A program made the position numbers and the translations under genes. A stretch of DNA of 64,000 nucleotides from Antedon mediterranea (lineage: Eukaryota; Animalia; Echinodermata), in contig NC_092680.1 in the NCBI RefSeq assembly GCF_964355755.1, positions 15,385,045 to 15,449,044 on the forward strand. The letters are read 5' to 3'. The notes beneath the pieces are model-generated. The model was given only the letters and a program-made list of their open reading frames with translations, was not told where the DNA came from and searched no databases. The first letter of the stretch is position 1. Every line of letters begins with the position of its first letter. This document shows, piece after piece, positions 11,034-59,498 of the stretch.

Positions 11034-12965
11034 TCAGATTGCCGTGCAACCAAATCCTTCCCAATCAAACGAACAAGATACGTCCGGTATCCATGTGACA
11101 TGGTCATCAGACATTTTACGTCTGTTTCTTAAAGACCTAGTTTCAGGTGCTTGTTTATTATGTTCCACCACTTTGGTTGACCAATACGTGGGTATATTGA
11201 AGCATTGATCAACGATTTCATCAACAACGACTGCTTTTAGGAACTCTGATGGAATCATGCCCTTTCTTTCGACATAAAACGATGGGGAGTTACCGTTGAA
11301 AAACTAGAGGTAGAGAAAATACGATGCATTAGCGTAGTTATTATTCACATTTACACTTCTTCAACCATCAATATGAAACTATATAAAATCGTCTATTATA
11401 ATTTAGAACATTGATTATTTAAAGATGACGTTTATATGCATTGAATTCTTTAAAATAATCGTTTTTCTTAGTTAAAAAAATACCGGAAAATACATACCTT
11501 ATTATGGTCGTGCCAAACCAAGTCATCATCTGCCCACAAATAACAGGCGCTGTTATTGACGCTGTAAGCTGCAACGAGTTTCTTTAAAAATAAAATAGAA
11601 TCGGATTTATGAAACTAAAGTGATCAAATTTGGTAGAATAAAACTAGAAGTATTTATTGCAACAAAGGACAATTTTCGTCAAATTTTAATTATCGGCTAT
11701 AAAATTTAAGGTTCGTCGACTGCTTTAGAATTTTACCTGGCTAAAATCAAATATAATTGTCCCTCCGTCAGTCACATTGGCAATTTGTTCAAATGTCAGA
11801 ATTTCCACAAGATGGCTGGGGTACGTATATACACTAATTGAGTGTGCTATTCCATCATCAACATAGTTTACTGTTCTGCACCGCGTCATCTAAGTAAAAT
11901 GAAACTGTTAATGATAACTTACATCATCGATAGGCTACATACGGTAGCTTACGTAATAAGATAAATAACTCACTAATACTATGTGATGCAATGTAGGCCT
12001 ATCATGATGTGTACACTTCTAGCATGTATAATGAATACAATTCAACGTATAATAAAGAAAGCCCAGAATAACTTAGATTGGTTTGTAATACCGCATTTGC
12101 ATTAAAGGTGAAACATTGTATACATTTAATAATAAGGTAGTAATAGTTGTATAGCGCCATTCCAACAATTATTACTCATATCGCTGTGGACGTAGATGTT
12201 ACACTCTTCAACTTACATGCTTCTTCGCTAAGGGTCACGCCGTGACAGTTGTAGCGCTACCTTACCTGTTATTTGATAGTTGCCGTGTAAGCAAGTACAC
12301 ACCGGGGTAATCAATCCCCTACCGTCTCGAACGATGTACAGATTATTTACAGTGCACACGAGCATTTTTTGTACACTGGACCTACGGTTTATTGTTCTTG
12401 TACGAGTCCTTATATCAAACACTTTTCGTTTTTTTTTATACAATCATAGGACTAATTGTAGGCTTGAAAAGTAAACATTTACAGGGGCTGGGTAAATTAT
12501 TGTATTGTTTTGATGTATATGTTAAATTGGATGCACCACTTCTGTTTGTGCCACCGATGCAAAGGTGTCATTTCCTAATAAATTATTATTATTTTTTTTT
12601 TATTTGTAAAATAGGCAATACTTAGAGGTATACATTATGCCACCAATTATATACCGTCAGCCTACAACAATAACAAGGTTTTACTTACGAAGTGTCTTGA
12701 CATAAGTACAATTGCTGCGACTACTCCAACAACCAGAAACAACACAAATAGGCCTACAGTTATGACAATGTGTTGCCGTTTCAATGAAGCGTTTTTAGTT
12801 AAGATTGGTTCCTAAAATAATAATGAGTTCAAGTTATAGAGTACTGACGATATCGATAGATTTCAGCTATTATACATTTAATTAAAAATATAAAAAAAAC
12901 TCCTTGATTTTTACCTGAGAATCTTCATTTGCCTTCTTTTCTGTTGAAATAGATGTTGGATACAT
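11034..12965 (-). CDS. Type II membrane BRICHOS-domain peptide precursor, copy A (about 226 aa)
   Basis: Five exons joined by phase-0 introns: 12965-12915 (MYPTSISTEKKANEDSQ), 12811-12689 (TM: IVITVGLFVLFLVVGVVAAIVLM), 11889-11737 (ends GGTIIFDFSQ), 11581-11498 (KLVAAYSVNNSACYLW), 11303-11034 (IVDQCFNIPTYW...RNRR KMSDDHVTWIPDVSCSFDWEGFGCTAI). The IFDF / AY / CY / C..PTYW motifs match the BRICHOS pattern. Confidence 0.85.
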
Positions 12966-14007
12966 GTTGACAGCCGGATACAGACGATACGTATCAACTA
13001 TGCGAAGCACGAACTTTATATGAAGATTACACACTTATATTAGTCCGGTTAATTCCATTCAATATCCTCACAACAAATTTGAGAGTTTAGTTCACCGACC
13101 AAAAACCTGTCCGAAATCTTATTTTACTTAAGTGCCTAATTATCAGCAGATGTTTGCATAGACTCTCTTCACAGGCGTGCTTTGGGATGTGTGCGCATGC
13201 CAAATCCGACTTTAAAAATTCCCAACAAATCACCAACAATACAGTTATTGGCCATGTCACATGTCAAAGAAAGGAATGTGTGTGGGTGTAAAATAAGGGT
13301 AAAAGAAAACAAAAAGCAAAACAATTTTTAAAATCTTTTTAAACATAGTAGAAAAATAAATATTAAGATTAATTATATTTTATCTAATTGTGGTTGTGAA
13401 TATTTATACGAAATAAATAACTTATTTAACTTTGATAAACTGCCCAAAAGGTAGCCATGAAATAAAGACCATCTCTCAACTTTTTCTACTGTTTGCAAAC
13501 GGGTGTTATAAAAGCAAGAACACTTTTCAAAGCATCAATTTTTTTAATAAAAAGCAGGCTATGTATATTGTTGTTCGAATTTTCACATATCCAGGTCATT
13601 CACTTTGTTAACAACAAATGATAGATAGTCTAATATGACAGAATAAAATAATACAATCGCAGACAGTGACGCAATATGCATGTTTGCATGACTAACACTT
13701 TATAAAGAAATAAAAAAATATCAGAACAATAAAGTATATTTACAGATCACTGTGACCTGTCTTTAACTATTGGAATGTGTGTTCATAGAAACGAATGGTT
13801 GAAACACAAACGTTTTATCAGAAAAACAACTTCAAAAAATACCTATCTTTTAGAAACAAAGTAAATTACAACAAGCAATACTGATACGTAACAAATATGT
13901 GGTAGCATATTATATAGATGTAGGTCATCAACTTAAACAGTGTTGTAGATAATACAGATCGTCACTTTGGAGTTCTGTACTACACCAAATGCTATTGTGG
14001 TACGTAA

Positions 14008-14520
14008 GGGTGTGTGGCGCAGTGTGTTGGACGTTGGACTACTGATCGTGATATCGCGGTTCGAATCAAACTCTGCCGCATTGCTTGTATCCTTAAGGGC
14101 CTTTCACACCTGTTCCGGCACGGTTCCGGTCCGGCGAATCGAACACAAATGTTTCGTTTTTACGACGCTCCACGCGGCCAAGCACCAATCGATATGCGCG
14201 TAGCCACGTGAAAACGAAACATTGACGTTCGATTGGATTTGCCGTCGCCGGACCGGAACCGTGCCGGAGCAGGTGTGAAAGGCCCTTTAGGCAAGATACT
14301 TTACTTACGTTTACCTCTCTCTATACCCAGGTGTATAAAATTGGGTAACCGGTTAGATTAAGACACAACTTTGCGCTGATTACTAGCTGTAGGCCTATTA
14401 TAGTAGTATTTTTCTATACGTGTTTGATACAAAAATGACGGGTAATAATGTTCACCGCTTAGAGGTTTCACAACATTAGGCGCTATATAACACTTTAAGC
14501 AATGAATAAATGTTATATAT
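14008..14520 (+). mobile_element. tRNA-derived SINE interrupted by a MITE
   Basis: A box TGGCGCAGTGTG and B box GGTTCGAATC; SINE core TCCTTAGGCAAGATACTTTAC...CCCAGGTGTATAAAATTGGGTA; L2-like tail GGCGCTATATAA. Confidence 0.75.
14096..14286. mobile_element. PIF/Harbinger-type MITE
   Basis: About 40-bp TIRs AGGGCCTTTCACACCTG...CAGGTGTGAAAGGCCCT with a 3-bp TTA TSD on both sides. Removing it restores the SINE core. Confidence 0.88.
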
Positions 14521-16205
14521 ATATACGTTATGTTATTTACATTTTAACTTCGGGACAAATCTTCGCCTTGGATACCTATCTTATCTATCTCAGATTTCTA
14601 TCTATCTTTCTATCTTAGGAAGATATTATAAAGAGTTTTAGGCTATAACAAAATGTATGATTTCATTGGTAGATTTTTAACTCTACGCGCGGTAGAAGTA
14701 ATTTCCGGGTTCACGGTAAGGTGTATCAATCACCTTGCAACTAAGTTGGCCGTTGGTGGCTTTAGCTATTTTAGTTTTTTTTTTATTTTCGGACCGCGCG
14801 TTTGAAGATATATACATACACATCAAATTAAATATATTCATAAGACATATGAGTATATTGTGGGGAATAAGTATAAAAAATTACATCGAGAAAACTGATG
14901 ATAAGAGCTTTTGTTTGAAATCGGAGGAAACCCCGATAGCCGAGTTTTTTAGTAAGCTGCCAGGACTTTATGTACTGTGCGCTATCTGTGTCCCGTTCGG
15001 CCCCTGGGATACTTCTGCCCATGATGCAAGCCGTCTAAAACGTCTTCCTTCTTAGGCCAAAACGGCTCACTGTATCGCAAAATAATGTATTAATTATACC
15101 AATTAGGATGGTATTTATTTGAATAAACGCCCGGAACATCATTTAATAATTACCCCCCCCCCCCGCCCCCTACCATCTAATAAACGTCCATCCACATTTA
15201 TACACACACTATTGTACTATACTTATAACACAATTTATACTAATTTTAGTAGAACTGCTATCTACAATTTACCAATCATTTGTTATTCTTTTTTGCCACT
15301 TTTTATATCTACTAGAGGAATTTCTAAAACCTTTTTATCATTCCGAGAACCATCGTCTGCACTTCCTAGAGGAAGAACTTCGTCTACAAACTCTAGTAAA
15401 TACGATGAATACTAAAAACGTATAAACATCTTTTGAGCTACTAACATTTTGGATTTTTTTATAAAATAAAATAATGTTTGATTTGGCTGTAAACTAGATC
15501 GAATTTATTATCATGCAGTCAACTTACTAAGAGTATTACATTGAAATACGATTGATAATAAGAAATAAAGCATAATAATTATTCGTTCTAGTCTGAGGTA
15601 GTTTATAAGTCTTTTATTTTGTAGTGAATTGTATCTGAATTGTTATTCAACAGTAATTTAGTTGTACATACATCCATTACCAATGTATATTATTGTAAAA
15701 GCGGTAGAAGCAGGACAACTGTTAACTATGATGATTTAACGAACTTTTATACCTACCTGATTAACAATGAATAACTCTAATTCAGGTCAAGTCATCACAC
15801 AATATTATACAATGTTGACGTTTTAGTGAATTCAATAAAAGATCAATAGGATTTTCTCGACGTTATTGTGAAAATCGCAAACAGAATACTTTATTGCGCA
15901 TATAAAAGGAAAATATTTTCTTAGAAAAGAATGGTTGCTAACCTAACGTGTGTGTTAAAAAGCAAAAACAAACTTTTCAAACAATATCAGCCATAATAAT
16001 AAATTCTTCAAGGTTATTTTCTTGTTATATTATTGAAAGATACAACAGGTCATTTACTCCATTAAAAGTATAGTAGGCCTAATATATCCATTACTTTTAC
16101 CAGAATAATTAACAATAGTATTTATTTATGATGATGCTGATTTAAACGTTACAATTGGTATTATTATAATTTTGTGAAATCACAAGACTTGAATTCGGTG
16201 AACTA

Positions 16206-16348
16206 AGGCTCTGTCTACTCTATTAAAACTAGTTTTACAAAACAAAAAGTGTGATGAGCCCAATTATTGTATAGTGATAATATGGCCAAATAGTGATATA
16301 ACATCACTTTTTTTTCACATAAAGTTTGATAGTGTGGACAGAGCTTTA
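16206..16348. mobile_element. Small MITE
   Basis: Imperfect TIRs AAGGCTCTGTCTACTCTATTAAAACT / AGTTTGATAGTGTGGACAGAGCTTT. Confidence 0.6.
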
Positions 16349-16539
16349 GAATTATTGTCACCCGGGTTGGTAAAAAGTACGCTAAGTAGTCATGTGTGAA
16401 CTAAAAATACCTTCCAATAATTTTTCTATTTGTATACGATTATTTAGAAACGTTTGACTGTAATTTAAATTTCATCGCGTTAGTAAAGCAATACAATGAC
16501 ATGATACGTCGTGATTGAACTCTGCTACTCTTATCAATT

Positions 16540-17310
16540 TTTAGTCGCGTGGAAGCGACTCTATAGTTCACTATGTCGGTCGGTTGGTCGGTCTGTCTGT
16601 CTGTCTGTCGGTCTGTCTGTCGGTCCGGTATCACTATGCGTTTTATCGCTTTCTGACCTTATCTTGATATCAGTTTAATCTAGCTAGGTCAATTTTTCAC
16701 AGTATATTCCTTATGGCCAGGAATCAATGTGGTTATGTTTTCACGGTGCGCAATAAAAAATTACGCGGTCTACGCACGATTTAACGAAATCACGTTTGTA
16801 ATCATATCTTCACAACCATGAATCACAATTAAATAAAATTTGGTACTCATAAATTTCAGGGCATAAATCATCATATGGCAATACAATTACGTGCGAAGCG
16901 CATGTAACGCATGTGTACGCGCGCTTAAAATTTTCAAAATTTATTTTCGATGAAATAAGAGTACATTTCAGGCAATTTTAAGCGTTTACAAAATTGCCAT
17001 GCGTGCGCATACTTTTGCGCGCGCACTGCGCGTTAAATGTTATTGCGCACTCTTTTTGCCCGATTTCTGTTTTCTTGACTTACTTTTCAACTCGAAATTA
17101 CGTTATACGAGCACGTCGAAAGTGACACGAAAAAAATATAAATGTTTTTAAACATTTCAACATTTTTAAACATGTTCAGTAATTTCGGTCAGTATAGTTC
17201 ACTATGTCGGTCGGTCGGTCTGTCTGTCTGTCGGTCTGTCTGTCGGTCTGTCTGTCGGTCCGGTATCACTATGCATTGTAGCACGCGACTTAATGGCTGT
17301 TGGCCTTGTT
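16540..17310 (+). mobile_element. Non-autonomous Helentron/DINE-1-like element
   Basis: SubTIR AGTCGCGT...ACGCGACT, (GTCT/GTCG)n microsatellite blocks, 3' hairpin ending GGCCTTGTT, T-rich insertion site. Confidence 0.7.
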
Positions 17311-29978: not shown

Positions 29979-32900
29979 TTAATTTGAATAATATTCAAAG
30001 TGTTTGTAATCGTCATCCCGGTTGATGTTGTTTTTAGAAATCTCTTTCGCTGATCGTTTATTTAGTGTACATGAAACCAAACCGCTGCCGTAGTTGCTAG
30101 GACTGATACTTAAAGATCGGCATTGTTCAGTCTGCTCACATAAGGTAAGACACGTGAGCAAAGACCTAACAGGCAATGCTGAATGGATATACTCAGACAC
30201 GAAGCTTATGTTGTCAAAGAAATGCATCACTCCCTTTAAGCCTGCAAAAGAAGAAATTATTAGAAGATTATTGTAGTCGTCAACAGGTGTGTTAAAGGTG
30301 CCATGGTAGATGTATCAGCAGTGATCTCAACTTGTATTATAATAGTCAGTAATAGCCATGTATGGCAGTAATTACAATTGTTGAAGAGAAACACTAATAC
30401 ATGTTAATGGTCTTATTAATATGCTTATACAACAACCATAAAGTATCCTATGTAACCATTATACTAATAAACTTACCTGTACACTGTAGTGGTCCTATTG
30501 TACTGGTACCATTTTCCGAAAAATGGCCTGTGTCACCATGTCGTAACTGAATCACCGGTAGGGTAGACATATCTTCAATATATCCATCGTCATATCTCAA
30601 AACCTTATCATTTCTGTTACATTCACACATTTCACTTAAATCGCTACAGTCACCTTTTATAAGAATTAGTAAATAAAATAGTATCACAAAATTGTTATTG
30701 GCGTTTGGGCAAAATGCTTTATGTATTGCTTTAGACGTTCATCGGTAAATGCTGATCTGTGATAATCTTTTGTATAGTAGAATTACTTTGAATAATTTTC
30801 AATTTATGTGATTTTTAGGTAGCGGCTTATACATAGACAGGTGTAACATCAAACTAACTACAGGCCATCTGATAAGAACGGAAAATACAGACGAGTAAAA
30901 TATTATGATGATAATTAATGTCAAACTATAGGTTTACCTCTATATCCACATGCGCAACCATAAAAGCCGATTGGACTTCCCCAGTTATACATTTTCGAAC
31001 CATCACGTGAAATCCAAAAACTGACAGGTACACCGATTGAATTAAAGCACTCATACTGTTAGGAAAAAAATTTACGAATATTCTACATTCAAATAAAATA
31101 GCCCAATGATTATGATACAGTATAGCTGCTACTTAATTAATCGTGATGGAATTTCTGTCTACATTTATATCAAATTTGACGAGCCCATATGGACATGATA
31201 ATGTCATAATTTGGCATATCACTGCCATATTTGAGTACATCACACTTATTTTGGTACATCATACTGTCAAACTAGTTTGTCATGAATACAATGACTATAG
31301 ACAGAAATTGACAATACAGTTGTTAATCTATGTCTCTCTCTCTCTTGGTAGTTCCTCCATTTATCATCAGACGAATCCTAACCCAATTCATAAATACCCA
31401 TACAAATAAAATAAATGTAATTGAGGTGGTGTTCATTCATGTTTTCCAATTTAGGATTTTTGATACAAATTTCTAGACATATCCGTTGTAGTAACTTTCT
31501 CTACATGGTGTGCATAGTACCAGCAGCAGAGAAAAATACAGCACAAAATTGTCACTTATAAATTTAGTTAACCATCTTCTACAACAATTTGATGATGGAA
31601 ATAATTCTATTGGCATATTTATAGACTTTATGAAAGCATTCGACACGATTAATCATGAAATATTAATATCTAAACTACAACACTATGGAATAAGAGGTCA
31701 ACCATTATATTGGTTAACCGACTATTTAAAAGGAGGATTTCAATACGTGGCTGCTGACCAAATTAGTTCTGATAAACTCCCAATCTCATGTGGAGTCCCA
31801 CAAGGATCAGTATTGGGTCCAACCCTGTTTCTGATCTACAAAAATGATATTTCTCATTCTAAAAAATGTTTTTGAATTTAGGCTGTTTGCAGATGATACT
31901 AATTTATTTCATGATTTCTCTGGCAATAATATTGATCTCTCTATAATTAATTATAATTTTCAACATGTCATTGAATGGTGCAATGCAAACAAATTAACTA
32001 TTAACGTTGGTAAAACAAAATTATATTGTATTCTGTAACAGGAATAAAAATGTTTCTACTAACGGTAATATATACGTAAAACATAAACAACTTAATGAAG
32101 CAGAAGAAGTAATGTTTGTTGGTGTTAAGATTGATAAACATTTAATCTGAAATATTCATATTAATGATGTTAAAAACAATATTAGAAAGAAGGCAGGCAT
32201 TTTATTTAAACTAAGATATGTTGTACCCACAAATATATTAATCTTATTATATAAAATGTTTATTCAACCAAGTATCACTTATGGCATAGAAGTTTGGGGT
32301 AGCACGTATAAAACATATTTACAACCTATTTGTGTCATTCAAAAAATGTGTATGCGGTGTATAACCTTTTCTGATTTTAATGCTTCGTCATCTCCGATAT
32401 TTAAGCAACTTAATATTTTAGATGTTCATAAACTATACGAATTATGTGTACTTAATTTTGTTTTTGATTTATATAATAGAAACTCTGCACATCAAATCAG
32501 TTATTATTTTAGTACAGTTGATCATTTACGAACTACTAGATTTAAACAAGGTAAAAACCTATCTATCCCAAAAGCCCGTACTATGGCAGGTCAATTTAGA
32601 ATTTCGTTTACTGGCACAAAATTTTGGAATAATTTATCACTCGACATAAAAAATAATACATCAAAAATTAATTTCGTAAAAAATATAACTGAACTACTAT
32701 TATCGAGATACTGATTAATGCTGGCCCACCTCTTTCTTTTTGTCATTATCGTGTGTTTTTTTTTTACATTATTGTATAATTATATTATCAAAATCGTTTG
32801 CACTGAACAGTATTATATTTGTTAATCAGGTGTAAACCATTGACTAGCGAAAGCTATTTGTTTATACCGTTTTGCCTTTGGTGAATAAAGAATTATGAGA

Positions 32901-38433: not shown

Positions 38434-41063
38434 TTACTGGCATGTACATACTTTCCAATTAAACGAACAAACTACAGTCCCGTTATTTCGCGGATTTTCT
38501 GAAAACCGGATTCCAATGTTTCCATTAAGTTCTGTGGTTTTAATTGACCAGTATGTGGTCATACCGCAACATTGGTCAACGATTTCTTCACTAGCAAGCC
38601 CTGTCAGGTACTCTGGTGATATTATGTCCTGTCGTTCGACATTAAACGATGGAAAGTTACCATTGTACAACTGTAGGCAAATAAAATATTAAATAATTAT
38701 AAATATGATTTTAATGACATAACCATAAAATGTAGGCCTATGCATACAATTAGGAAACAAATCTTGCTTAAACATAATGGTAAAAAAACGCAAAATGCCT
38801 AATATAATAGACTTATAGAAGGAAGTAGCTATATTTATTTGTAGATATATTTTAGCAAACTTAAAATGTTCATTATTTGTACTTCCACCTTTGAATATAC
38901 ACACTACAGGTAATTGTGCTAGTGACAAAAGCACGGCCATATTGTTTGGAAAGAAAACACCGTCACAATCAAATTGTACAGAACAAGCTATTGCACAGCA
39001 TAATAGGTTTACATTACGATATTTATACACATAAATTGTCACTAATATGGTTTTAGGAATGACTTATATTTGCAGATATTTAGGTTTGCTAATCGCATGC
39101 ACATTGTGACGTTAACATTATTGTATCTTATTTTGTATGTTTTGCTTTTTGTTATTTTTCTGGTTTTCACACTTGTAATTTTAACAAATACATACCCAGT
39201 CACGATTATGCCAATTCAAGTTCTCGTCTGCCCACAAATAACAAGCGCTGTTTTGGGCGCTGTAAGCCGCAATGATTTTCTAAATTAATAAACATAAAGA
39301 ATAAAGATAAATAATAAAGAGTCTTAATACTTACAATATTATTGACATACATTATTGAACTAGTATTCTTCTTAATTTTTATTTTATGCTTTTAAACATA
39401 TTTCAAAGATATAGTTTAATGTCTTAAGACTCTTACGTGGTAAAAATCAAATATAAGTGTTCCTCCGTCAGTCACATTTGCTATTTGTTCAAATATCACA
39501 ATCTCTACATGGTGGCTGGGGTACGTATATACATCCATTGAGTGTGAGATCCCATCGTCTATATAATCTACGGTTCCACACCATCCAGTTCCCTAAATTT
39601 ACAACAATTACCATTTGTACATTATAGGTATACAAGTAAAAATAAACAGGGGCATATGAATTGCTTATGTAATGCCAGACATGAGCACACCGTGGCTAAA
39701 TAAAGCTATATTGTTAGTTTTAGTTCATTTACTATATAAAAATAATGGTACACATAATGTCATGAGGTGAAACATGAAATTATATTTCACGAGACGAAGC
39801 CTTAGTGAAAAATAATTTTATATTTACCGAAAAAAATTATTTTTACCACTGCATAAATATAAAACACTCAATTATATTGTTTTATATAAAAAATAAGTAT
39901 ATGGATTCTTTTCTTTGCCATTAAAATAAATAGTACGTACTATTGCACGCCATATGACTCACAATTGAAAATATATAATACTGTATATTACACACTATAT
40001 CATGTCAATATTGGCAGAATAAAGCATTTACTCTGCACTCTTAAAATATTATTAAATAATAAACAAAATACAAGTTTCTGTCTTTAAGGTATAACCTATC
40101 TACTAAAGAGCAAACGAAAGATAAACGTTCTAGAGATGTGCTTTGACAATGATTTATAAGAGGATGACCTAATATAATGAATGAACACATTCAGCCTAAT
40201 CCACGTCTTCTAACAAATTCTTTACATAATTATCTACTTACCATCGTAAGCATTATTGCTGTAACCACGCCACAAACTAGGAAAAACAGCACCAAAGAAA
40301 TAACAATTACCTTCTTTTTCAAAGATGCTTTTTTCTTCACGATTGGTTTCTTCTATAAGTATATAATATAATAATGTATTATTTATTAACTTATTTTTTA
40401 TGTCACCTTAAAAATGTTTAAAAGTGGTACTGATTTTTAATATGAGTAACCGGATAAATAATTAGTAATAAAAATAGTAATAGTATTTTCCTATACTATG
40501 AAGGTTTCGATTTTTATAATTTAAAACAAGAACAATGCTTCACATGTACATAAATGAGATTCAATTTTTATGAATTTCCTATTTATTTTTATGAATTTCC
40601 TATCTTATGACATTACAAGAGATTCTGTAGCATCATTTTTGTTATGCTTCACCGCTGTCAAATGTAAATATTTTATAATAACAATATACATTGTTTTCCC
40701 TGAAATTAACCTTAATATTTAGTCAACGATTTTTCTTTTATTTATCAAAAGCATGGATCTTACAGAAGAAAATAAATTCCAACCACACGGCACTTATTTG
40801 ATCGTTTACAGCACTGTGAAACTACATTTTAATATACTATGGTACGTTCGCTTCGCTCGCGTACCATAGGTCGTGCTCACAGATGGTTCTCGAATACACA
40901 GTAATTTCAGCGTTTTTTTGTATATGTGTTAAACAATACGATTTCTGCAGCCTTCTTTTAAAGAGACAGTTTTAAATGAATACCTATAATCCTATACCTC
41001 AATATTTACTTGAGTTTCGTCTACATTTGTCTTCTTTTCTTTCGTAATTGTTTTTGGAAACAT
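38434..41063 (-). CDS. Type II membrane BRICHOS-domain peptide precursor, copy B (about 217 aa)
   Basis: Exons joined by phase-0 introns: 41063-40998 (MFPKTITKEKK..), 40352-40242 (TM VIVISLVLFFLVCGVVTAIMLTM), 39592-39437 (ends GGTLIFDFYH), 39279-39196 (KIIAAYSAQNSACYLW), 38670-38434 (IVDQCCGMTTYW...NPRNNGTVVCSFNWKVCTCQ). All introns are GT-AG and the frame is open. Confidence 0.86.
40835..40915 (-). mobile_element. Helitron 3'-end fragment (same family as 55754-58786)
   Basis: ATGGTACGTTCGCTTCGCTCGCGTACCAT hairpin followed by CACAGATGGTTCTCGAATAC. Confidence 0.7.
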
Positions 41064-42519: not shown

Positions 42520-43459
42520 TAAATGGGTAAAACAAATTCACTTGGAATAAGTGAATTTTTTTTAAACAATTATTTATAATTGTTTTTATTATTTTCACTG
42601 TATGTCTTCAATCCTTAAGAATATTATTATACAGTTTTGGTATTATTTTATTATATCATGAGAAAGATATGTGTCAGGATTGATTTAAGTAGCTCACAAG
42701 CGTCGACGGATAACAAGATCTTCACTTACTATATTCAACAATCACCCTTATTGGTGGTAGACAACGTGTTATAACGCATGGCATATAGGCCTATTTGTTT
42801 ATTGATACCATTATTTAATGGTTTGTATACGTCGAGATACCGTTGATATTTCATAATAACGTGTGATTATGACTATGAATGTTAAGAACAGTTAAAGAAG
42901 AAATACACCTAATGTGCTTTGTAATCATCATCACCATGCTTCAACATCAACAATACAAGCATCATCACAATCTTTAATTTAACCGTCATAATCATTCCAG
43001 ATTCCAATTTAAAGAAATAACAATAATATACTGATAAACGCAATAATCTTTATCAAATATTTATTTCTTCATACAAAATCATTACGAATAATGTGAGCGT
43101 TGTTGTGACAGGATTAATTTATCTTAATGTCACAAGAAACTGACAATTTTAACATTCTTTTTACTTTTTTATTTGCCTCTGGGTAACAATGAAATACGTG
43201 GAAAAAAGTAAGTTAACTAGGTTGAAAACGATAGAATCAAAATAATGGTTTTATTAAATAAAAATGTTATGTTGTTTTTTTCTTTATTTATTTAATCACA
43301 CTATTGTTTACAAGACCAGGCTTATGGATGAACAGATATATAAAATAACAATTGAAATATAACACTAAACCTCAACATCTTTTTATCCCGAGTAGAAGGG
43401 GAAAAGGAACATTGGCATGTAGTCCTGGGCCTATTAGTCAAAATCACCAAATTCTCTTA

Positions 43460-44910
43460 GCAAAATAAAGTTATCATAAGCCTACTTTTAGTACAGTATC
43501 TTTTCTTGTAGGCCTACGCGTTTTACTGTACTGGCTATGGCATGTTTAATTTAATTCAACGAACAAACTACGCTGTCTCGTTGTTTTTCTGATTTTTTGA
43601 AAGCCAGATCTCAATGTTTTAATTAAGTTTTATGGTTTTAATTGACCAGTATGCATGCAACATTGGTCAATTCTTCACCATCAAGTCATGTTAGGAATTA
43701 CTATATACTATGTGCTTTCTTTCGAAAGTTTTTAAAAAAACTATTTTAATAAACTCTTAAAATATATTATCCTTTAATCATAATGGCAAAATATCGTATG
43801 CTATTGGTTCCGGACGACTATATGTTTAATACACAGGACAAGTATGTACTTGATAACTTTCGTCACTGGTGACCAATGGCAGACGGTATCTATTAATATG
43901 CTCGATAATAATAACAACTTTATTTAAAAACGGATGCAACACTTGAATCACCATATTGGTGTTTTTCACAAGGCCGTTACTTACTACAAAACTATTTATA
44001 CTATTACACAAGTTATCATTTACAGTACAAAAACAACAACAACAACAACAACAACAACAAAAAAGATTTCATGTAAAAAATATAGAGTTTCAAGTATATT
44101 TTATCTTTGGTCATTTATCATTTTTTTAAATATATGTATATTAGGAGCTGTAATTGCATTTGAGTTTATAGCATTTAAACTATTCCATAGCAACGGTGAA
44201 CCATATATATAGGCCTACATAGTAACGGTTACAGACTCGGGTGCGATATTAAACGATGTAAAACTGTAGGCAAAGTTAAATAATTAATTAAAAATATTAT
44301 TAATATTATTATTATAATGATATGAACATAAGTTGAATAAATAAATTAAGGAATACATCTTTCCTAATAGTAAAAACACCCCAAGAGATCAATTTACGGT
44401 ACACCATGTATTTCTATTATACTATAGACTTATAGAAGGAAGTAGCTAAAGTTATTTTAGCAAACCTTACATTTACGTATTATAATTGTCATCATTTGTA
44501 CTTTAACCTATGAGTATATACATTACAGACTAATGTCCTAGTGACAAAAGCATTGCCAGGCCATTGTTTGGTAAGAAAGAAAGCACCGTCACAATCAAAA
44601 GAATTGTGCTGGGCCAGTTATTACACAGCAAAACTGTTTATAAAAGGTTTACAAAAGAATATTTTTAGACATTAAAATAAGTGTTTGGTTTCAGGGCTAC
44701 TAACGTTTGCAAATATTTAGGTTTTCTATTTGCATGCGCATTGTGACGTCAACAGTTGTATCTTATATTGAATTTTGTATGTCTTTTTTTCTGAAATAAC
44801 AAGCTTCTCAATTCAATTCATTCACATTATTTAGCATGGATCTTAAAGAAGAAATTAAATTCTAAACACACGGCACTTACTTAATCTTTTACGGCACGTG
44901 AAAATACTTT
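43460..44910 (-). pseudogene. BRICHOS-family pseudogene (degraded exon 5, intron 4 and intron 1 remnants)
   Basis: GGTTTTAATTGACCAGTATG, CAACATTGGTCAA, TAGAAGGAAGTAGCT, AGTGACAAAAGCA and AGCATGGATCTTA..ACACGGCACTTA match copy B; contains stops and indels. Confidence 0.78.
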
Positions 44911-45892
44911 TTATTTCAATATATTATTCAAACTACATGGATTAGATACTATAATATATTAACATATATAGGCCACAAAAGAGAAAAAAAAATGATTATA
45001 TATATATATGGTCTCAATTATGATCTGTAGGCCTAATATTCAATTTAATAGCAATGATTTATATACCAACTATCTAAGTGACATACATGGCATAACAATT
45101 AAACGTTTAACCATTAAACCTTATTATATGAAGAAAAACAAAATTATGTATAATTATTATACTACAAATTAAACTATTGAGCAAATTTTACATCCAAAAT
45201 GATTTATTACAATAGGTTGCAAATCTAATACATAAAATATGTTTAAATATAATTTGAGGTACTGTGTAGCCAAATTAATTTTTTAACAGATATTATATGA
45301 CGTCATTAGGGTCTAACATACTGATGAGCTTATATATCGCTTGATTTCCTGTTGAAAATTATTTTCTTCATGCATACTTATACAGGATAGATAAGTTATT
45401 GATTTCACCAACTGACCCAAATAATGTTACTGTTTGAAACAGATTTTTCTAAGCATTGACACTGACGGGACAAAACCTTATTTGGTATAACACAACAGAA
45501 CATCTTTCGACTTTTAAAAACTGGCAGCTAGTTTTATTGTACTAATGACTGTAATACTAGTAAAACTTGATAGATCAAGTAAGTCTTAAAACATAACCTT
45601 AAACAATTCTCACTCTTGAGGACGATCAAAGTATATTGATCAAAACGTCGAGAAACTTAACAGTTCTTTCCAGAACTGATGTACGTGGTGTACCGCAAAC
45701 TTTATTTCAACCTTCAAACAATATATAATGCCAATCACTTTAGAATCAGAGTTGTAACATGTTTCATTCTTCCAAGTCAGTGTGTACCGAAAGGCTTGTT
45801 CACATAAAAAAATAATACATTAAATGTTGATATTTTGAAGATTCGCAATCATTTCCTCTGTGGGTCAGGTGACAAACATCATTGGTTAAAAG

Positions 45893-52023: not shown

Positions 52024-52874
52024 AATCCTGTAATAGTAACACATTATGTTACACAGCAGAAAAGTATTTGAATATTCATTTGTGATACAGTAGTAGGTTT
52101 TAAGCCATACCGAAAGCAGAAATACTAACTGAAATGAACGTTTCATATTGTTGATATTCATTTCAAATTGGAAAATCATCAATAAATAATAATATTGTTG
52201 ATAAATAAATTTAGTTTTAACTATTACATTGGAATAGAATCCACTTTAAATAAGCTACACTGTCAGATACTAATACTCAACCATAAGTTACCTTGATTTG
52301 TTGTACCAATTGGAGATTTAATAATACATGCTGATCAATTGTTGTAACAACGCAAACAGTAAGGGAGTTTTCAAATTGTCTGTGGTATTTACCAATGGAC
52401 TCACGGAATGTAGACAGCACTCTAAATGAATTGTATTAAAATGCAAAACAGCCTTCAAGGAAGATCACCTGATTCCGCAGCTATCACCAGATATATTCTA
52501 ACAGACTATTGCAAGGAAGTCACGAGTTTAACAAATAACTTTATGTAATATCTGCCAGTAGATAATGGTATAACGTTAATATGTGTATTTAAATGCACCA
52601 GGAAAAAGACAAGCAGGTTTATCGTTTGTTTTACTGTATAGACTAGTCTATAGGTTCTACACTTAAATCGACATAATATCAGAAAAAAGATAGATATATG
52701 CATACATTGTTTACAGATGATTTATAGATAATATTGTCAAGTCTTGTTAAGTGTTAAGAAGGTTATGCACATTAAAACTTTAATTGTTTGTCTTCTAATT
52801 TTTGTAATTTCAAAGTTTATTTATTGTAATTGTGATTATCTTATACTGTCATTATTGTCAACACTATTTTCTTA

Positions 52875-53395
52875 TTTTTAATTTACTGGCATTACATAAT
52901 TTCCAATGAAACGTGGACTGTAGAGTGCCCTCATAAATGATTTTTCTTTATTAGATTATGAACTATGATTATGACGAGGTCTTCGTGTACTCTGGCGTAC
53001 CAGAAATCTTCTGTTTGGTGGTCGATTAAATGTCACTAATAGATTAATTAAGCACCTGTGCGATTCCTCAATACGTGATATTGATATTGTCTTTGATCGA
53101 CTGTAATATTGTTAAATCTAAAAAACGTTTAAAGCTATTTTGTCATATTTATATATTTATATTGTTTATCAGAACTTAAATTGATTTGAGAAAAAACCCC
53201 AAATATTCTATAAGTCTTGGTTTTCGCGGATTTGCAAAGACAAGTCAAATCCCAATGTTACAATTACGTTCCATTGTTTTAATTGACCAGTTATGTGACG
53301 AACGATTTCTTCACTAGCAAGTTATGTTATGTATTCTGGCGATATTATGTGTTTTCTTTCGACATTAAACGATGGAAAGATACCGTTGAACACAG
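52875..53395 (-). pseudogene. BRICHOS-family terminal exon relic, split by an insertion
   Basis: TTCGACATTAAACGATGGAAAG, GATTTCTTCACTAGCAAG and GTTTTAATTGACCAGT at 53270-53390; TTTAATTTACTGGCAT..TTCCAAT (peptide end, reads GTLQSTFHWKLC) at 52877-52930. Confidence 0.75.
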
Positions 53396-54329
53396 AAAAT
53401 TTCAAAAACATTAATAAATAAAGAAAATTGTTTAATGATCAAGAAAAATACAAAGATAAGGTTTGCGGTAGACCGTGGATTATAGACTATAAATGAAAGG
53501 CCTAGGCCTAATGCTAAGCTTACATTTTAAGGGTAATGTGTACTGTATTTTCTTCAAGATTAAAATCGTAGAGGCCGCGCTACTACAAATTACAATATTA
53601 GTAATAAAACTGTATGACAGGCCTACTTTAGTATTTCAAATAACCTAGCCTAAGATTTGATGATCCGATGATCTGAGTTTTCTATTTCCATTCTAGATCA
53701 TATCTAGATCTAGAAAACTGAGATATATCTGAGATCTAAATTTTCTAGACACCTAGAAAGAATTAATCCTAACATGTTTAGATGTGGCAATGTAATTGAA
53801 TGTGGCAATGTAATTGAAATGATATTGGAGACAAATATCATTATTCGTCTGCCATACAGTACTCACTGCTATGCCTAAACCATAATATATTCTATCCGTC
53901 CCCATTACATCGAATTAAAATACACCAATTATTAAATACGGGATCAACTAAAATATTGTCGAATGTTGCTAATGTATTCATACAATATTGTATTTTGTTT
54001 GTTGAAGCTAACTGATAATTTAAATATGAATTATAGATTTTTGTTATTTCTTTAAGATACGTTAGCTATACGAACTATAATTTATGTCTGGAAGTTGATA
54101 TGTCTTGTTTCTTTCTTTGTTCTTTCAAACCCTTAAAATTGTCGTTATAGAATCTTTAAAAATGTCATAATAAATATCAGCCAATCTTTGAACTACCGAA
54201 ATATTCTCTACCATCAACCTCAACGCATAAACATCCATTATTACTGGTTACTCATTTGAGTCTTCTTCAGTACAAGAAAATGGTTGAAGAGCCAATTTAA
54301 ACACAAATTAGGGAACTTAAACTAATATT

Positions 54330-54555
54330 TTAGGATAAAAGTTAAATTAATAACAACTGAGCCTGTATTGCAAATCAGTTTGTTAGTTCGAATGCCTGTA
54401 ATGTTTGGATTTTGATTCATCGGATCTTTAACATCAATACCGATTGTATTCATAATATAACACCAGAGAGGATTCATTAATGTGCAACGGAACAACTGTG
54501 ATAAAAAAAAAGACCTAGGTCCGGTCCTATTTGGTACTCTGGTGGTATTATATAA
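54330..54555 (-). pseudogene. Divergent BRICHOS terminal-exon relic (frameshifted)
   Basis: Reads IIPPEYQIG, then after a poly-T frameshift LFRCTLMNPLWCYIMNTIG, which aligns to IISPEYLTG...DQCCGMTTYW; homologous to 41655-41750. Confidence 0.55.
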
Positions 54556-54969
54556 ATAGACCCAATGTGCTTGGTAATCATCATAACCAACACCATCATC
54601 ATCATCATCATCACAGTCATCATCACAATATTTAATTCAACACTCATAATCATTCCAGATTCCATAATCTTTATTAAATCAATACGAATACCGTGTGTTG
54701 TGATTATTTTGATCTTAATGTAAAGAAATCGACAATTTTAACATAAATTTTCAGAATTTTAATGTATCACTTTATTATTTGCCTCTGGGTAACAATTCAA
54801 TTTTAATTAGGTTGAAAACTGTAACGATAGAACCACAATAATTATGTAGTCCTTGGCCTATTAAAATTAATACAATTCACCACATTATCTATTTTCTTGA
54901 GTAAAATATAACTATCATAAGCCTACATTTTAGTACAGTATATCTTCTTGTACGCCTACATATTTTAAT

Positions 54970-57900
54970 TTACTGGCATGTACATACTTTCCAATTAAAT
55001 GAGCAAACTACAGTCCCGTTGTCTCGCGTATTTTCTGAAAACCGGATTCCAATGTTTCCATTAAGTTCTGTGGTTTTAATTGACCAGTATGTAGTCATAC
55101 CGCAACATTGGTCAACAATTTCTTCACTAGCAAGCCCTGTCAGGTACTCTGGTGATATTATGTCCTGTCGTTCGACATTAAACGATGGAAAGTTACCATT
55201 GTACAACTGTAGGCAAATAAAATATTAAATAATTATAAATATGATTGTAATGAATGAAATAAAAATTAAATACAATTCTTGGTTATTGGTAAAAAAAATA
55301 TCAAAACTTGGAAACAGGTTTTTCGCCACACCGGGTATACCTAATATGCCACTTATAGAAGGAAGTAGTTAAGGTTGACATATTTTAGCAAACCTTACAT
55401 TTAATTATAATGTTCATTATTCGTACTTCCACCTTTGAATATACACACCACAGTCAATTGTGCTAGTGACAAAAGCACGGCCATATTGTTTGGAAAGAAA
55501 ACACCGTCACAATCAAATTGTACAGGTCCTGTTGTAAACAAATACATACCCAGTCATGGTTATACCAATCCAAGTCCTCGTCTGCCCACAAATAACAAGC
55601 GCTGTTATTGGCACTGTAAGCCGCAATGATTTTCTAAATGAATAAAAATACTAAAAATAATCTGAATACTTGCAATAATACGGTGGTAATTTAATGAACC
55701 ATTGTAATTAATTTTTATTTTAGGCCTTTAAAAATAGTTCAAATTGATGTATACTAGATGGCACGCTCGCTTCGCTCGCGTACCATCTAGGTCGTGCCCA
55801 CAGATGGTTCTCGAATACACAGTATTTCCAGCGAGAAAAAAATGGAGATTTCAAATGTATACGTACCGCAGGACTATAATACATTGTCGTTTACAGAAAC
55901 GAATAAATATACACAATGATTTATGTAGTCAACCAAAATTAGCACCCTGGGAATTACTTCCGAGAGAGAAACAAAATGAGTCAAATTTTTTTATTTGGAC
56001 TCATTTAAACAAACCCAATTTGTGTTTTGTATGTAACATTAAGGGTTGAGGGATGGGGGAAGAAGATAGGTACAAAGAGGAAACATTTTAAAATATATTC
56101 TTATCCACTCAGTAACGAAATATTGTTTTTAATGTTTTATAGGCCTATAAATAATATACCACTAAATACAGTAAAACATTTACGATTTAATACGGTACTT
56201 TGTTAAAACTCTCACTGTCATAGTCGATTGAAATAGTAAAGTACATGTAACGATACACCACTACGACGTTTATATATTTTTAAATTATTAATTAATACAA
56301 ACGTTGAGAAGCAACTGTCAGTAATAACGTTTATTTATTTGTATATTATATGTTTATAATCTAACAGTAGGGCCTACCCACACTCACAGTAATAAAGTTT
56401 ATTTGTATATATTTTTATATTACATCTAACAGTACCAACACTCACAGTAAGAAATTTGCGATTAAAATTGGGATCAAAAGTGGTTAATACCTTAACAGTA
56501 TTGTACAGCATTGCAATACTATTTATGTTTATTCTCCAAGGGGGCCCATAAATCTAAATCTATACCTCTATGGTTAAACCAAATAATGTGGAATGTTTAT
56601 TTGTATATTATATGTTTATAATCTAACAGTAGGGCCTACCCACACTCACAGTAATAAAGTTTATTTGTATATATTTTTATATTACATCTAACAGTACCAA
56701 CACTCACAGTAAGAAATTTGCGATTCAAATTGCGATCAAAAGTGGTTAATACCTTAACAGTATTGTACAGCATTGCAATACTATTTATGTTCATTCTCCA
56801 AGGGGGCCCATAAATCTAAATCTATACCTGTATGGTTAAACCAAATAATTTGGAATGTTCCATTCATCACAAATCAATACATTTGTAAAAACGTATATTA
56901 AATGTATCAAAATAGTATTTTTTAAAGAAAATCGGCCTGTCTTCAACATTATGATGGTGTACTCTAGCTGTTCAACCGGTTTTCAGCCATTAAAAACAAT
57001 TATCGTAGGAGGAGATAGGAAAATGCGAAGCCTCCTCGCATTTTTGTGGCGGGTATTTTTCAAGACGGACATCCATTATACAGTGTATACCACGGTTGGA
57101 AAACACCCCTATTTGGGGCAAATCTTGGAACCTAAATTCGTTTTAACCGTCAATAACTTATTATCTAACTTAATTTAATTAGTAAACAGGGTTACATCAG
57201 GTGGTTAAAATCAGTACCGAAAGTACGAACCAACTTTATATACCATCGAGTAAAAATTATAGAAGTAAGGCGCGATTTACCGAATTTTGCCCTTACGTAA
57301 ATTTATATATAGACTAGATGGTACGCTCGCTTCGCTCGCGTACCATCTAGGTCGTGCCCACAGATGGTTCTCGAATACATAATAATTTCAGCGTTAAAAA
57401 ACTGGCGATTTCAAATGTACGTACCGCAGGACAATAATACATGTCGTTTACAGGAACGAATAAATAGACACTGTGATTTATGTACTGAACTAAAATTACC
57501 ACCCTGGGAATTACTTCCGAAAGAGAAACTTGTCACAAAATGAGACCAATTGTTTAAGTCAAATTTAAACAAACTTAATTTGTGTTTTGTATGTAACGTT
57601 AGGGTTGAGGGATGGGAAAGAGGATGGGTGCAAAGAAGAACAATTTTTAAATATATTCTTTATCCATGTAGTAACGAAATATTAATTGTTTACATGTTTT
57701 ACAAATAATATACCACTAAACACAGTAAAACATTGCGATGTAATACTTTGTTGAAACTATCACCGTCCTAGTCGATTGAAATAGTATAGTACATGTAACG
57801 ATACATCACTACGACGTGTATAATATGTTTATATAATGTAAAACAATTTGTGAAAACCACCCCTATTCGTGGCAAATCATAAATTCGATTTAATCGTCAA

Positions 57901-59498
57901 TAAATATTAAATTATCTAACTCAACTTAATTAGTAGGCCTAATGGTTTTCAATTGTTTCTTAGAGCCAATTCATACTTAAGTTGGTTCCTAACCCTACCC
58001 ACCAAAGTTGTTCTGCGTTTAGAGCATGTGATGCACCGTAGGCCTATCCTCTACTGGCTTTACAACGCTACTCATGCCAGTGAGGGAAGGGTGATGATGT
58101 CACGTGGGTGGTTTAACTGCAATAATAAAGATTTGTACATAATATACGGCGACTGAAAACGCTAGCTCATTATCCGTTAAAAAAAAACTATATCCAACCT
58201 CCGCAGGACAGATTGAAAAAAAAATGGATCGAATTTCTGTTATGAGTATACACATGGACCTCCATGGTATACAGTACTTGCCTTTACGACGCCTGAGGGA
58301 ATAGACACTTGTGGAACAGAGATTGGAATGTTCCATTCATTTCAAATCAATACATTTGCATAAACGTATATTAAATCTATCAAAATAGTATTTTTTAAAG
58401 AAAATCGGCCTGTCTTCAACATTATGATACTGTACTCGAGCTGTTCAACCGGTTTTCAGCTATTAAAAACAATTATCGTAGGAGGAGATAGGAAAATGCG
58501 AAGCCTCCTCGAATTTTTGTGGCGGGTATTTTTCAAGATGGACATCCATTAGACAGTGTATACCACGATCGGAAAACACCCCTATTTGGGGCAAATCGTT
58601 GAACCTAAATTCGTTTTAATCGTCAATAACTAATTATCGAACTCAATTTAATTAGTAAACAGGGTTACATCAGGCGGTTAAAATCAGTACCGAAAGTACC
58701 AACCAACTTTATATACCATCGAGTAAACATTCTAGAAATAACGCGCGATTTACCGAATTTTGCCCTTACGTAAATTTATATATAGATTATACTCATATTA
58801 TAGTCTTACGTTGTAAAAATCAAATATAAGTGTTCCTCCGTCAGTCACATTTTCTATTTGTTCAAATATCACAATCTGTACATGGTGGCTGGGGTACGAA
58901 TATACATCCATTGAGTGCCTTATCCCATCATCTACGACTCCGCACCTAAAGACCCTCTAAATAAAATGATAGTTGCTAATTAATTAGCTTGGATAATAAA
59001 ACGAAATAAAATAAAATATTATTTTTGTTGTTGTTTAGTTCTGTTTAGCTTTTAAAAAACCCTACAGTACATATAGAATTTTACTTAATGTACTAAGGTA
59101 AGGTTGTGTGTCTTTTTTTCACGGTCTACAAACAATTTATTTGTGATATAGGCCTACCATTGTTATACCTCTATGTATATACTTACACGTTCTCGGGTAA
59201 GAACGATTGCTGCAACCACACCGCATATTATGATCAACACCAACGGAATACAGATACCAATTATTTTATTCTTTCGAGAAGTTCGTTTGGTCACGATTAG
59301 TTTCTGAAATGACAATCAAATTCTTAGCCTATCGTTTGCAATACCAACCTAAACTTTACCTACTTGCAGGAAACATACAAACTTCAGATTTCGATTTTAA
59401 AACTACGTGGTTAAGTTAATTAGTAAACGTACCTCAATGTTAACTTGAGTTTCGCTTTCATTTTTCTTCTTTTCGTTCACAATCGTTTTCGGAAACAT
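54970..59498 (-). CDS. Type II membrane BRICHOS-domain peptide precursor, copy C (about 216 aa)
   Basis: Exons joined by phase-0 introns: 59498-59433 (MFPKTIVNEKKK..), 59303-59187 (TM IIGICIPLVLIIICGVVAAIVL), 58956-58810 (ends GGTLIFDFYN), 55633-55550 (KIIAAYSANNSACYLW), 55206-54970 (..DQCCGMTTYW..NTRDNGTVVCSFNWKVCTCQ). Confidence 0.86.
55754..58786 (-). mobile_element. Two non-autonomous Helitrons head-to-tail (55754-57313 and 57314-58786) in intron 3 of BRICHOS copy C
   Basis: On the minus strand each unit starts TCTATATATAAAT and ends with a GCGAGCGAAGCGAGC-containing hairpin plus CTAG. The insertion is at A|T with no TSD, and the junction is CTAG|TC. Confidence 0.85.
56330..56860. repeat. 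Tandem duplication of about 265 bp inside the Helitron
   Basis: TTTATTTGTATATTATATGTTTATAATCTAACAGTAGGGCC...GGTTAAACCAAATAAT occurs twice in succession. Confidence 0.9.

Follow-up and report, generated by a model that had tools for sequence, protein, structure and literature searches.

Do three similar genes in the crinoid Antedon mediterranea encode precursors of antimicrobial peptides, or BRICHOS proteins of another kind? The DNA examined was a window of 64,000 nt (contig NC_092680.1, positions 15,385,045–15,449,044), in which the initial annotation had seen a hidden family of BRICHOS precursors with short C-terminal disulfide hairpins, possibly acting in host defence or signalling. To our knowledge, nearly all of the invertebrate BRICHOS proteins that have been studied are worm antibiotic precursors. 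For most BRICHOS proteins the function is described as unknown (PMC10182729).

Gene models, copies and selection

All three genes lie on the minus strand and have five exons each: A spans 12965–11034 (226 aa), B 41063–38434 (217 aa) and C 59498–54970 (216 aa) (Table 1). The spliced models are free of internal stops, all 12 introns are phase 0 with GT-AG borders at positions that match between genes, and the translations are letter-for-letter identical to NCBI proteins XP_071965374.1 (A, P0003), XP_071964722.1 (B, P0001) and XP_071965365.1 (C, P0002), which confirms the three intact genes proposed at the outset. The family was hidden in part only: the domain name was missing, but NCBI had already annotated all three genes, as ‘uncharacterized’.

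Splicing was read from X1, a single RNA-like run without a tissue record, alongside two DNA-like runs, X2 and X3. X1 contained the joints of all four B introns and of both C introns visible in the stretch compared, while X2 and X3 contained none of them. Spliced transcripts were thus found for B and C but not for A, which had no exon cover in X1 and a word share there of 0.34, equal to its coding fraction (word matches only). Since X2 and X3 likewise lacked cover over much of the word-containing stretch, a filter was at work, and the gap in X1 says nothing about expression of A.

A fourth Antedon paralog sits outside the window and two decayed relics, D and E, lie inside it; for the rest of the genome the number of copies is a minimum. 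The earlier suggestion of a lineage-specific expansion is supported. Relic D has intron-like homologous DNA at 44414–44913. The B and C proteins are 79–81% identical and their exon 5 DNA is 97% identical; a false assembly duplication was ruled out by that protein identity, by their differing introns and by their separate junctions in X1. A, B and C are under purifying selection: whole-gene pN was below pS in all three pairs (bootstrap replicates with pN≥pS, 0–1 of 2000). TRIM and TBK1-like genes do neighbour the family, as first noted, but unrelated genes are interspersed, so this neighbourhood is no evidence of function, and we rejected an immune role argued from it.

Table 1. Positions of exons, predicted features and relics in the window.
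Feature	Positions	Strand	Remark
A exon 1, cytosolic tail	12915..12965	-	model identical to P0003
A exon 2, basic stretch and putative type II transmembrane segment	12689..12811	-	
A exon 3, linker (Cys62), first strands and the conserved Asp106	11737..11889	-	
A exon 4, strands with first BRICHOS Cys122	11498..11581	-	
A exon 5, helix 2 with Cys171, spacer, tail, stop	11034..11303	-	
A furin-type motif R196-x-R-R199, spacer predicted disordered (185-207)	11118..11129	-	coordinates computed from exon 5 start
A predicted mature peptide, residues 201-226, net -5, Cys214-x8-Cys223, predicted two-strand hairpin	11037..11114	-	
B exon 1	40998..41063	-	joint 40352/40998 in run X1
B exon 2, transmembrane segment	40242..40352	-	joints in X1
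B exon 3, linker Cys64 and Asp108	39437..39592	-	joints in X1
B exon 4, Cys124	39196..39279	-	joints in X1
B exon 5, Cys173 and the extra Cys174, sequon N-G-T at 202, Cys207/214/216 in tail	38434..38670	-	joint in X1
B ten-residue hairpin register Cys207-Cys216, upstream convertase motif absent	38440..38469	-	low model confidence
C exon 1	59433..59498	-	model identical to P0002
C exon 2, transmembrane segment; R-x-x-R at residues 59-62 just past segment	59187..59303	-	
C exon 3	58810..58956	-	C-type exon 3/4 joint in X1
C exon 4	55550..55633	-	C-type exon 3/4 joint in X1
C exon 5, sharing 97% identity with B exon 5 along with its extra cysteines and its sequon	54970..55206	-	
Relic D, decayed B/C-type exon-5 copy, 74% identity, 9 indels, in-frame stop	43538..43736	-	
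Relic E, decayed B/C-type exon-5 copy, 73% identity, 4 indels, in-frame stop	53222..53392	-	

Assignment of the lumenal domain

Each protein has a single strong hydrophobic segment (19-residue Kyte-Doolittle mean 3.06–3.25) after a basic N-terminal tail, and a long helix covers it in both structure models (A and B); the basic flank suggests a type II orientation. A, B and C all contain the motifs D-F, A-Y, C-Y and C-(5 residues)-Y-W as well as a tail with cysteines, so that the membrane segment and BRICHOS motifs claimed earlier were borne out in all three genes.

The Pfam BRICHOS profile (PF04089) matched all three proteins weakly (E 0.015, 0.021 and 0.0015), at 19.2, 15.9 and 15.5 bits, all below the gathering score of 25; with two relatives included, weak matches were seen in five of five proteins. 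The gathering score is a detection threshold and not a structural definition of BRICHOS, and OAF was accepted into BRICHOS on structure and profile-profile evidence (PMC9714404). A solved BRICHOS domain ranked first in all four PDB fold searches, although each was weak on its own and none passed its own bar. Bri2 (8rnu) came out on top in two Foldseek searches (E 5e-3 and 5e-2, with no match at E≤0.001) and proSP-C (2yad) was on top with Z 6.9 (rmsd 3.4, 73 aligned) and Z 5.8 (rmsd 3.0, 68 aligned); VIA Z stayed below 8, and for A the best match was tied with LolB (Z 5.4). In the ESM Atlas, the top feature score (0.92, 203 of 256 features shared) went to a mostly-mollusc cluster with BRICHOS in 45% of its members, the 10 best family-bearing matches were all BRICHOS, and so were the clusters in structure rows 1–5 (TM 0.52–0.59 by query).

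Asp108, Cys124 and Cys173 (B numbering) are invariant in all five sequences. In the B model Asp108 ends strand 103–108, Cys124 is on strand 123–128 and Cys173 ends helix 167–173, and in the family the conserved Asp ends strand 2 and the cysteines are on strand 4 and helix 2 (PMC9714404). Cys124 and Cys173 are the conserved BRICHOS cysteine pair, with a putative bond between them. The models were built on five sequences (mean pLDDT 59.5 and 68.0) and helix 1 is very short in both. In A a two-strand hairpin follows the disordered spacer 185–207 (pLDDT about 68–70), and in B the tail (186–217) stays below 50. A BRICHOS fold with a C-terminal hairpin is thus predicted for A, B and C.

In a sequence search of 1.84 billion representatives, the sole non-Antedon match (E 3.2e-4) also speaks for BRICHOS: it is a sea-cucumber protein with the UniRef name ‘BRICHOS domain-containing’. 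PDB sequence searches gave no match for B and two chance matches for a five-sequence profile, none of them BRICHOS; NCBIfam matched weakly, on the transmembrane part only; and single exons, which are too short, returned nothing from Pfam (5/5 exon queries) or the ESM Atlas. Among metagenome contigs, none of 336 pattern matches was confirmed, and a word-indexed search, by then saturated, scored 7998 candidates and kept 4, each of them known already, while missing P0004. Altogether, the Atlas matches, the fold searches and the Asp/Cys/Cys triad support the BRICHOS assignment and the ITM2B-like layout of the initial annotation. A, B and C are new, crinoid-restricted members of the known BRICHOS superfamily, and four unnamed crinoid genes missed by Pfam gain a function-class label.

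Tail peptides, extra cysteines and candidate roles

Gene A carries R-x-x-R and R-x-R-R ahead of its tail peptide, and a furin motif also occurs in the fourth paralog, along with a four-cysteine 20-mer. Dibasic, R-x-x-R and K/R-x4/6-R motifs are all absent from the tails of B and C, where Arg/Lys occur only singly, so the basic site that had been ascribed to each of the three genes is present in A alone. In place of the furin site, B and C have an N-glycosylation sequon two residues after an Arg. The Cys-x8-Cys register of the proposed bridged peptide is found in all three genes, and the outer cysteine pair with its ten-residue register in all four paralogs, but with three cysteines each, the tails of B and C depart from a simple pair. 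Among 69 lumenal differences between A and B, two involve cysteine, and at both positions A has Phe where B has Cys, each by a single-base change: one in the domain (Cys174), the other in the hairpin (Cys214). Both extra cysteines occur in C as well, giving lumenal counts of 5, 7 and 7 for A, B and C.

The reading that we favour, by a modest measure of belief, is that A, B and C encode membrane BRICHOS proproteins of a crinoid gene family, probably of type II by analogy with their relatives, in which the domain would shelter the C-terminal cysteine hairpin on its face A. Furin-type cleavage, as in the wider family, likely frees an acidic peptide from A; B and C, having no convertase motif, are likely uncut, so that the tail stays attached, and a disulfide between Cys174 and Cys214 may lock the hairpin onto the domain. 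The likely role would be that of an extracellular anti-aggregation chaperone, on cells or shed, resembling ITM2B or gastrokines, and not of a cationic membrane-lysing antibiotic.

A two-step history leading to these designs is possible but doubtful. The ancestor of A, B and C would have lost one inner hairpin cysteine; on the A branch the orphan cysteine would then have been lost too and the acidic hairpin peptide released, while on the B/C branch a cysteine would have been gained beside the BRICHOS disulfide and the furin site replaced by the glycosylation site. The hairpin would thereby be held covalently on the chaperone domain, making B and C self-locked, redox-gated BRICHOS proteins, an arrangement of which we found no description in the literature. 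Such a lock, if true, would provide a ready-made covalent chaperone-client complex, a useful one, since the evidence that clients bind on face A comes mainly from predicted models.

It is conceivable, though we would not bet on it, that these are BRICHOS proteins in which the extra cysteines of B and C bond to the linker cysteine or to another molecule and form no lock; bonds between molecules would give dimers, oligomers or a link to a partner protein. The odd lumenal cysteine counts leave room for other pairings, Bri2 is reported to form disulfide-linked dimers and oligomers (PMC5727130), and helix 2 and the client groove are placed on different sheet faces in the account of PMC10182729, so the proximity of Cys174 and Cys214 is not given. 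On the other hand, B and C have both extra cysteines and A has neither; A nevertheless has the linker cysteine, so that cysteine does not need them.

We consider it rather unlikely that all three genes release a small non-lytic signal, metal-binding or anionic defence peptide, with BRICHOS as carrier only. B and C would then be cut at one lone Arg or by a different protease, which is possible: an Arg stands ahead of the hairpin in both, but the sequon follows two residues later. The register shared by all four paralogs fits this reading, as do the B and C hairpins, which show no amino-acid difference (pN 0), and one anionic invertebrate antimicrobial peptide is on record (PMC11767717). However, 240 of 2000 bootstraps fail to separate pN from pS in these hairpins, whose identity may reflect recent copying since exon 5 is 97% identical as DNA.

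The initial proposal that all three genes are precursors of arenicin-like, membrane-lysing peptides is improbable. The four-part architecture is the same, some of the polychaete precursors are likewise transmembrane (PMC10745061), and tandem duplication with recombination is also described for preproalvinellacin (PMC5431198). The fourth paralog, with its furin motif and four-cysteine 20-mer, also fits, and the tail evolves fast between A and B/C, with pN close to pS, as is common for defence peptides; pN>pS was not significant (1808 and 920 of 2000 bootstraps), and positive selection on the tail was not supported. The beta-hairpin class is described as cationic and Arg-rich (PMC13001179), but tail net charges are -5 for A, +1 for B, 0 for C and -2 for the fourth paralog, none of the four tails exceeds +1 or has more than one Lys/Arg, and the convertase site is missing from two of the three window genes. 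A lipid carrier of the LolA/ependymin type is very improbable, for although ependymin-related and LolA/LolB chains rank closely behind, BRICHOS leads all four fold searches and the Atlas, Pfam weakly matches all five proteins and the triad is invariant.

This set of genes carries the caution that BRICHOS plus a hairpin need not mean an antibiotic. It also lets two furin-site paralogs be compared, within a single genome and as a natural contrast, with two that lack the site, the difference including a matched cysteine pair.

Relation to known BRICHOS systems

The nearest relatives found are a Holothuria leucospilota protein (KAJ8022015.1, P0005) and the mostly-mollusc Atlas cluster, which share the membrane segment and a divergent BRICHOS domain; we found no functional description of either. 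P0005 is 19–23% identical to the Antedon proteins and has an R-x-K-R motif, but its tail lacks cysteine.

The polychaete antimicrobial precursors (arenicin, alvinellacin, capitellacin, nicomicin, HfBRI), as described in PMC4002450, PMC5431198, PMC6265681 and PMC10745061, share with the Antedon genes an acidic BRICHOS proregion (net charge -8 to -14 for the Antedon domains), a short C-terminal disulfide hairpin, tandem copies and mostly phase 0 introns. Their peptides are reported as cationic and follow a dibasic site (PMC10745061), whereas the Antedon tails are not cationic and, of the three window genes, only A has such a site. The alvinellacin and capitellacin genes are described with six exons and a phase-1 last intron, against five exons in Antedon.

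Gastrokines (GKN1-3) also have a compact BRICHOS domain, and gastrokine-2 was the best ESM Atlas structure match by TM (0.59/0.68), but no sequence-level relationship to the Antedon proteins was found. They carry a signal peptide and no cytosolic tail (PMC2751770), unlike the Antedon proteins with their membrane segment after an N-terminal tail. A preprint reports that GKN1 blocks curli amyloid as well as biofilm (PMC12919244), which sets a precedent for defence that needs no lytic peptide.

ITM2A/B/C (Bri1-3) and the invertebrate group A/I BRICHOS proteins have a cytosolic tail, a type II membrane segment, a linker plus a BRICHOS domain, and end in a furin site and a one-disulfide peptide of ~23 residues (PMC9714404, PMC2751770). 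No ITM2 protein was among the four matches at E≤0.001 of a three-sequence profile, whose reach is limited. The tails of ITM2 proteins carry a net positive charge and face an acidic domain (PMC2751770), whereas in Antedon domain and tail are both acidic or neutral, and the short helix 1 and, in B and C, the missing ITM2-type furin site are further differences. Even so, gene A follows the ITM2 plan point for point, and the Bri2 BRICHOS domain is the top Foldseek match.

BRICHOS identity and family

The animal DNA of the window is rich in AT (GC 0.26-0.36), and genes A, B and C, which encode proteins with a predicted BRICHOS domain plus a cysteine-containing tail at the C-terminus, were rebuilt as five-exon models (see table). 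None of the three models contains an internal stop, each of the 12 introns has GT-AG ends and lies in phase 0, the length of exon 4 is 84 nt throughout, and the proteins are identical, letter for letter, to NCBI records of this feather star (A, XP_071965374.1; B, XP_071964722.1; C, XP_071965365.1), each named 'uncharacterized protein [Antedon mediterranea]'. The three intact genes proposed in the initial annotation are thus confirmed. Intron 3 of C (55634-58809) measures 3176 nt vs 155-157 nt in A and B, via internal duplications.

We identify the lumenal domain of A, B and C as BRICHOS by the convergence of individually weak tests. The Pfam check proposed earlier did return PF04089 for A, B and C, but at 19.2, 15.9 and 15.5 bits, under the cut-off of 25; a fourth Antedon paralog (P0004) and a sea-cucumber relative (P0005) also matched below it. 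In the ESM Atlas, a cluster drawn mostly from molluscs, 45% of whose members carry BRICHOS, scored 0.92 (203/256 features), and the Atlas structure rows 1-5 were BRICHOS clusters, including gastrokine-2, ITM2, proSP-C and OAF. AlphaFold2 models of B and A, built on a five-sequence alignment, had mean pLDDT of 59.5 and 68.0, with the core mostly at 70-90. Foldseek ranked the Bri2 BRICHOS domain first for both (E 5e-3 and 5e-2), with no match at E<=0.001 for either. Among 48,161 chains, VIA-align ranked the proSP-C BRICHOS domain first for B (Z 6.9, rmsd 3.4, 73 aligned) and for A (Z 5.8, rmsd 3.0, 68 aligned), in the latter case tied with LolB (Z 5.4). Structure prediction therefore agrees with the proposed fold, if weakly in each search. 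Finally, the three residues said to define the family in the available text of PMC2751770 and PMC9714404 are invariant in the sequences aligned and correctly placed in the model.

A three-protein profile found four matches at E<=0.001 among 1,835,955,588 representatives, any of which can hide relatives more than 50% identical to it: the proteins of C and A, P0004 (XP_071965114.1, 227 aa, 41% identical, outside the window) and P0005 (E 3.2e-4; UniRef name BRICHOS domain-containing). In a 90% collection only the three window proteins matched. Our literature search (echinoderm, crinoid, sea urchin, sea cucumber, amphioxus; Antedon antimicrobials), which most subscription journals lay outside, found no echinoderm BRICHOS peptide family in the text available, and the main-text BRICHOS passages seen of the review PMC11767717 are confined to polychaetes. 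Echinoderm BRICHOS sequences as such are already known, since the accessible parts of PMC2751770 describe a two-sequence echinoderm/amphioxus group and those of PMC9627735 a BRICHOS group II of unknown function; A, B and C are a newly found set within a known superfamily.

Duplication, splicing and surroundings

Features of the window
Feature	Position	Strand	Remarks
TRIM gene, RING/B-box/FN3/SPRY exons	9578-2941	minus	domain matches
Gene A	12965-11034	minus	five exons, 226 aa, rebuilt model
Ig-domain receptor-like gene exons	24078-22546	minus	domain matches
PAN-domain gene exons	about 33746-29982	minus	domain matches
Reverse-transcriptase relic	31495-32711	plus	inside PAN-domain gene
Gene B	41063-38434	minus	five exons, 217 aa, rebuilt model
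Relic D, decayed exon-5 copy	43736-43538	minus	between B and C
Intronless ORF, 142 aa	46321-45896	minus	paralog of 48454-48107 ORF
Intronless ORF, 116 aa	48454-48107	minus	paralog of 46321-45896 ORF
NHL-repeat open frame, 389 codons	52245-51079	minus	without RING or B-box in frame
Relic E, decayed exon-5 copy	53392-53222	minus	between B and C
Gene C	59498-54970	minus	five exons, 216 aa, rebuilt model
Kinase exon	63560-63841		TBK1 in 12/12 PDB matches at E<=1e-10

The locus is a birth-and-death cluster. Protein identity is 79-81% between B and C and about 50% between A and each of these, while relics D and E retain 73-74% identity, with indels and stops. From exon 1 to 5, B-C identity is 83, 64, 84, 91 and 97%, and these values suggest that the 3' part was recently copied. 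Contigs of X1, a sequencing run called RNA by tool guess, cover relic D and nearby DNA (43332-44993), so that this relic may be transcribed.

Splicing evidence comes from this one run of one study. X1 contained joints at all four B introns (38670|39196, 39279|39437, 39591|40241 and 40352|40998), each showing CT..AC at its ends, with shorter sides of 23, 33, 96 and 112 letters. For C, compared over a stretch spanning introns 3 and 4, it linked exon 4 on one side to an exon 5 (55550) and on the other to the end of a C-type exon 3 (55633). No such joint was present in the DNA-like runs X4 and X5, and the proposed junctions are supported to this extent. X4 contigs matched the gene A region without any difference. 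Whole-gene pN was below pS in all three pairs (0.27/0.43, 0.30/0.51 and 0.11/0.22; pN>=pS in 1, 0 and 0 of 2000 bootstraps). For the tail of A vs B or C, over 36 codons, where alignment of the spacer is uncertain, pN was close to pS (0.53/0.40 and 0.52/0.53).

The TRIM and TBK1 neighbors reported earlier are both present, but they say nothing about the function of A, B and C; other such genes lie in the 25 kb between A and B, and the TRIM gene contains an imperfect tandem repeat (7901-8603). The two intronless ORFs are 36% identical, with a Cys/His pattern recalling an HNH-type zinc finger. Neither had a Pfam or NCBIfam family of note; the 116-aa ORF weakly matched a PHROG HNH endonuclease (E 0.019) and is covered whole by X1 contigs, the 142-aa ORF in part. 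They are possibly transferred genes.

Cysteines of the predicted tail hairpin

The Cys-bridged C-terminal peptide proposed earlier fits the outer cysteines, which lie in a ten-residue register common to all four Antedon tails. At the two inner positions P0004 has Cys/Cys, A has Phe/Phe and both B and C have Phe/Cys, leaving an orphan cysteine in the latter two. In B and C, moreover, the second BRICHOS cysteine is immediately followed by another, at a site occupied by Phe in A and P0004; among the 69 lumenal differences between A and B, just this site and the inner hairpin site involve cysteine. The simplest reading of the sequences, though a doubtful one given that a single clade represents one event and the B tail is poorly modeled, is that a cysteine in the BRICHOS domain became the new partner of the orphan one in the hairpin. 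Other pairings are possible in B and C because a seventh cysteine sits in the linker. Bri2 is dimerised through a linker cysteine, though no passage saying so turned up in the paper searched on Bri2 oligomers. In the literature examined, the sole additional BRICHOS disulfide described is the one of proSP-C, located inside the domain (PMC10182729, available text), and a search for a C-terminal peptide held by a disulfide yielded just work on Bri2 oligomers.

Tail charge, cleavage and proposed processing

Counted from the last basic residue ahead of the first tail cysteine, the tail peptides have 26 aa and net charge -5 with no Lys or Arg (A), 17 aa and +1 (B), 17 aa and 0 (C), and 20 aa and -2 (P0004). 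These charges do not support the arenicin-type host-defence reading offered as one possibility in the initial annotation. The P0004 20-mer is hydrophobic, with the Cys-x-Cys-x4-Cys-x-Cys spacing of protegrins, and stands out in this family as the strongest candidate for releasing a hairpin with two disulfides.

The A spacer, predicted to be disordered, holds both an R-x-x-R and an R-x-R-R motif, and P0004 has R-x-K-R, a canonical furin motif. The B and C tails contain no dibasic or R-x-x-R motif, nor K/R-x4/6-R, a further cleavage consensus; two residues past their last Arg they carry N-G-T, a glycosylation sequon, which relic D has at the equivalent place. Dibasic and R-x-x-R motifs are named as cleavage sites in the text seen of PMC6265681; the basic site attributed to each gene thus stands for A and fails for B and C. 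C alone has R-x-x-R just past the transmembrane segment (residues 59-62; 59187-59198, minus, exon 2 end), which, judging by the motif, could allow shedding of the whole ectodomain.

We propose that A, B and C are most likely delivered to the secretory pathway as membrane proteins of type II and that the domain most likely keeps the beta-prone hairpin within the groove of its face A, where binding has been modeled for most human BRICHOS members (PMC9714404, available text). A would then likely be cut by a furin-type enzyme, shedding an acidic 26-27-residue peptide, and B and C would likely stay whole as surface-bound or shed chaperones. By analogy, a defence role without lysis is possible: a preprint (PMC12919244, available text) reports that gastrokine-1 blocks bacterial amyloid as well as biofilm. 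In the parts of these sources available, beta-hairpin antimicrobial peptides are portrayed as Arg-rich and cationic (PMC13001179), and those of polychaete BRICHOS precursors as carrying positive charge and following Lys/Arg-Arg (PMC10745061); the tails of A, B and C differ from both in lacking cationic charge and, except in A, the cleavage site. The A peptide would be similar to the Bri2 peptide in its size and single disulfide.
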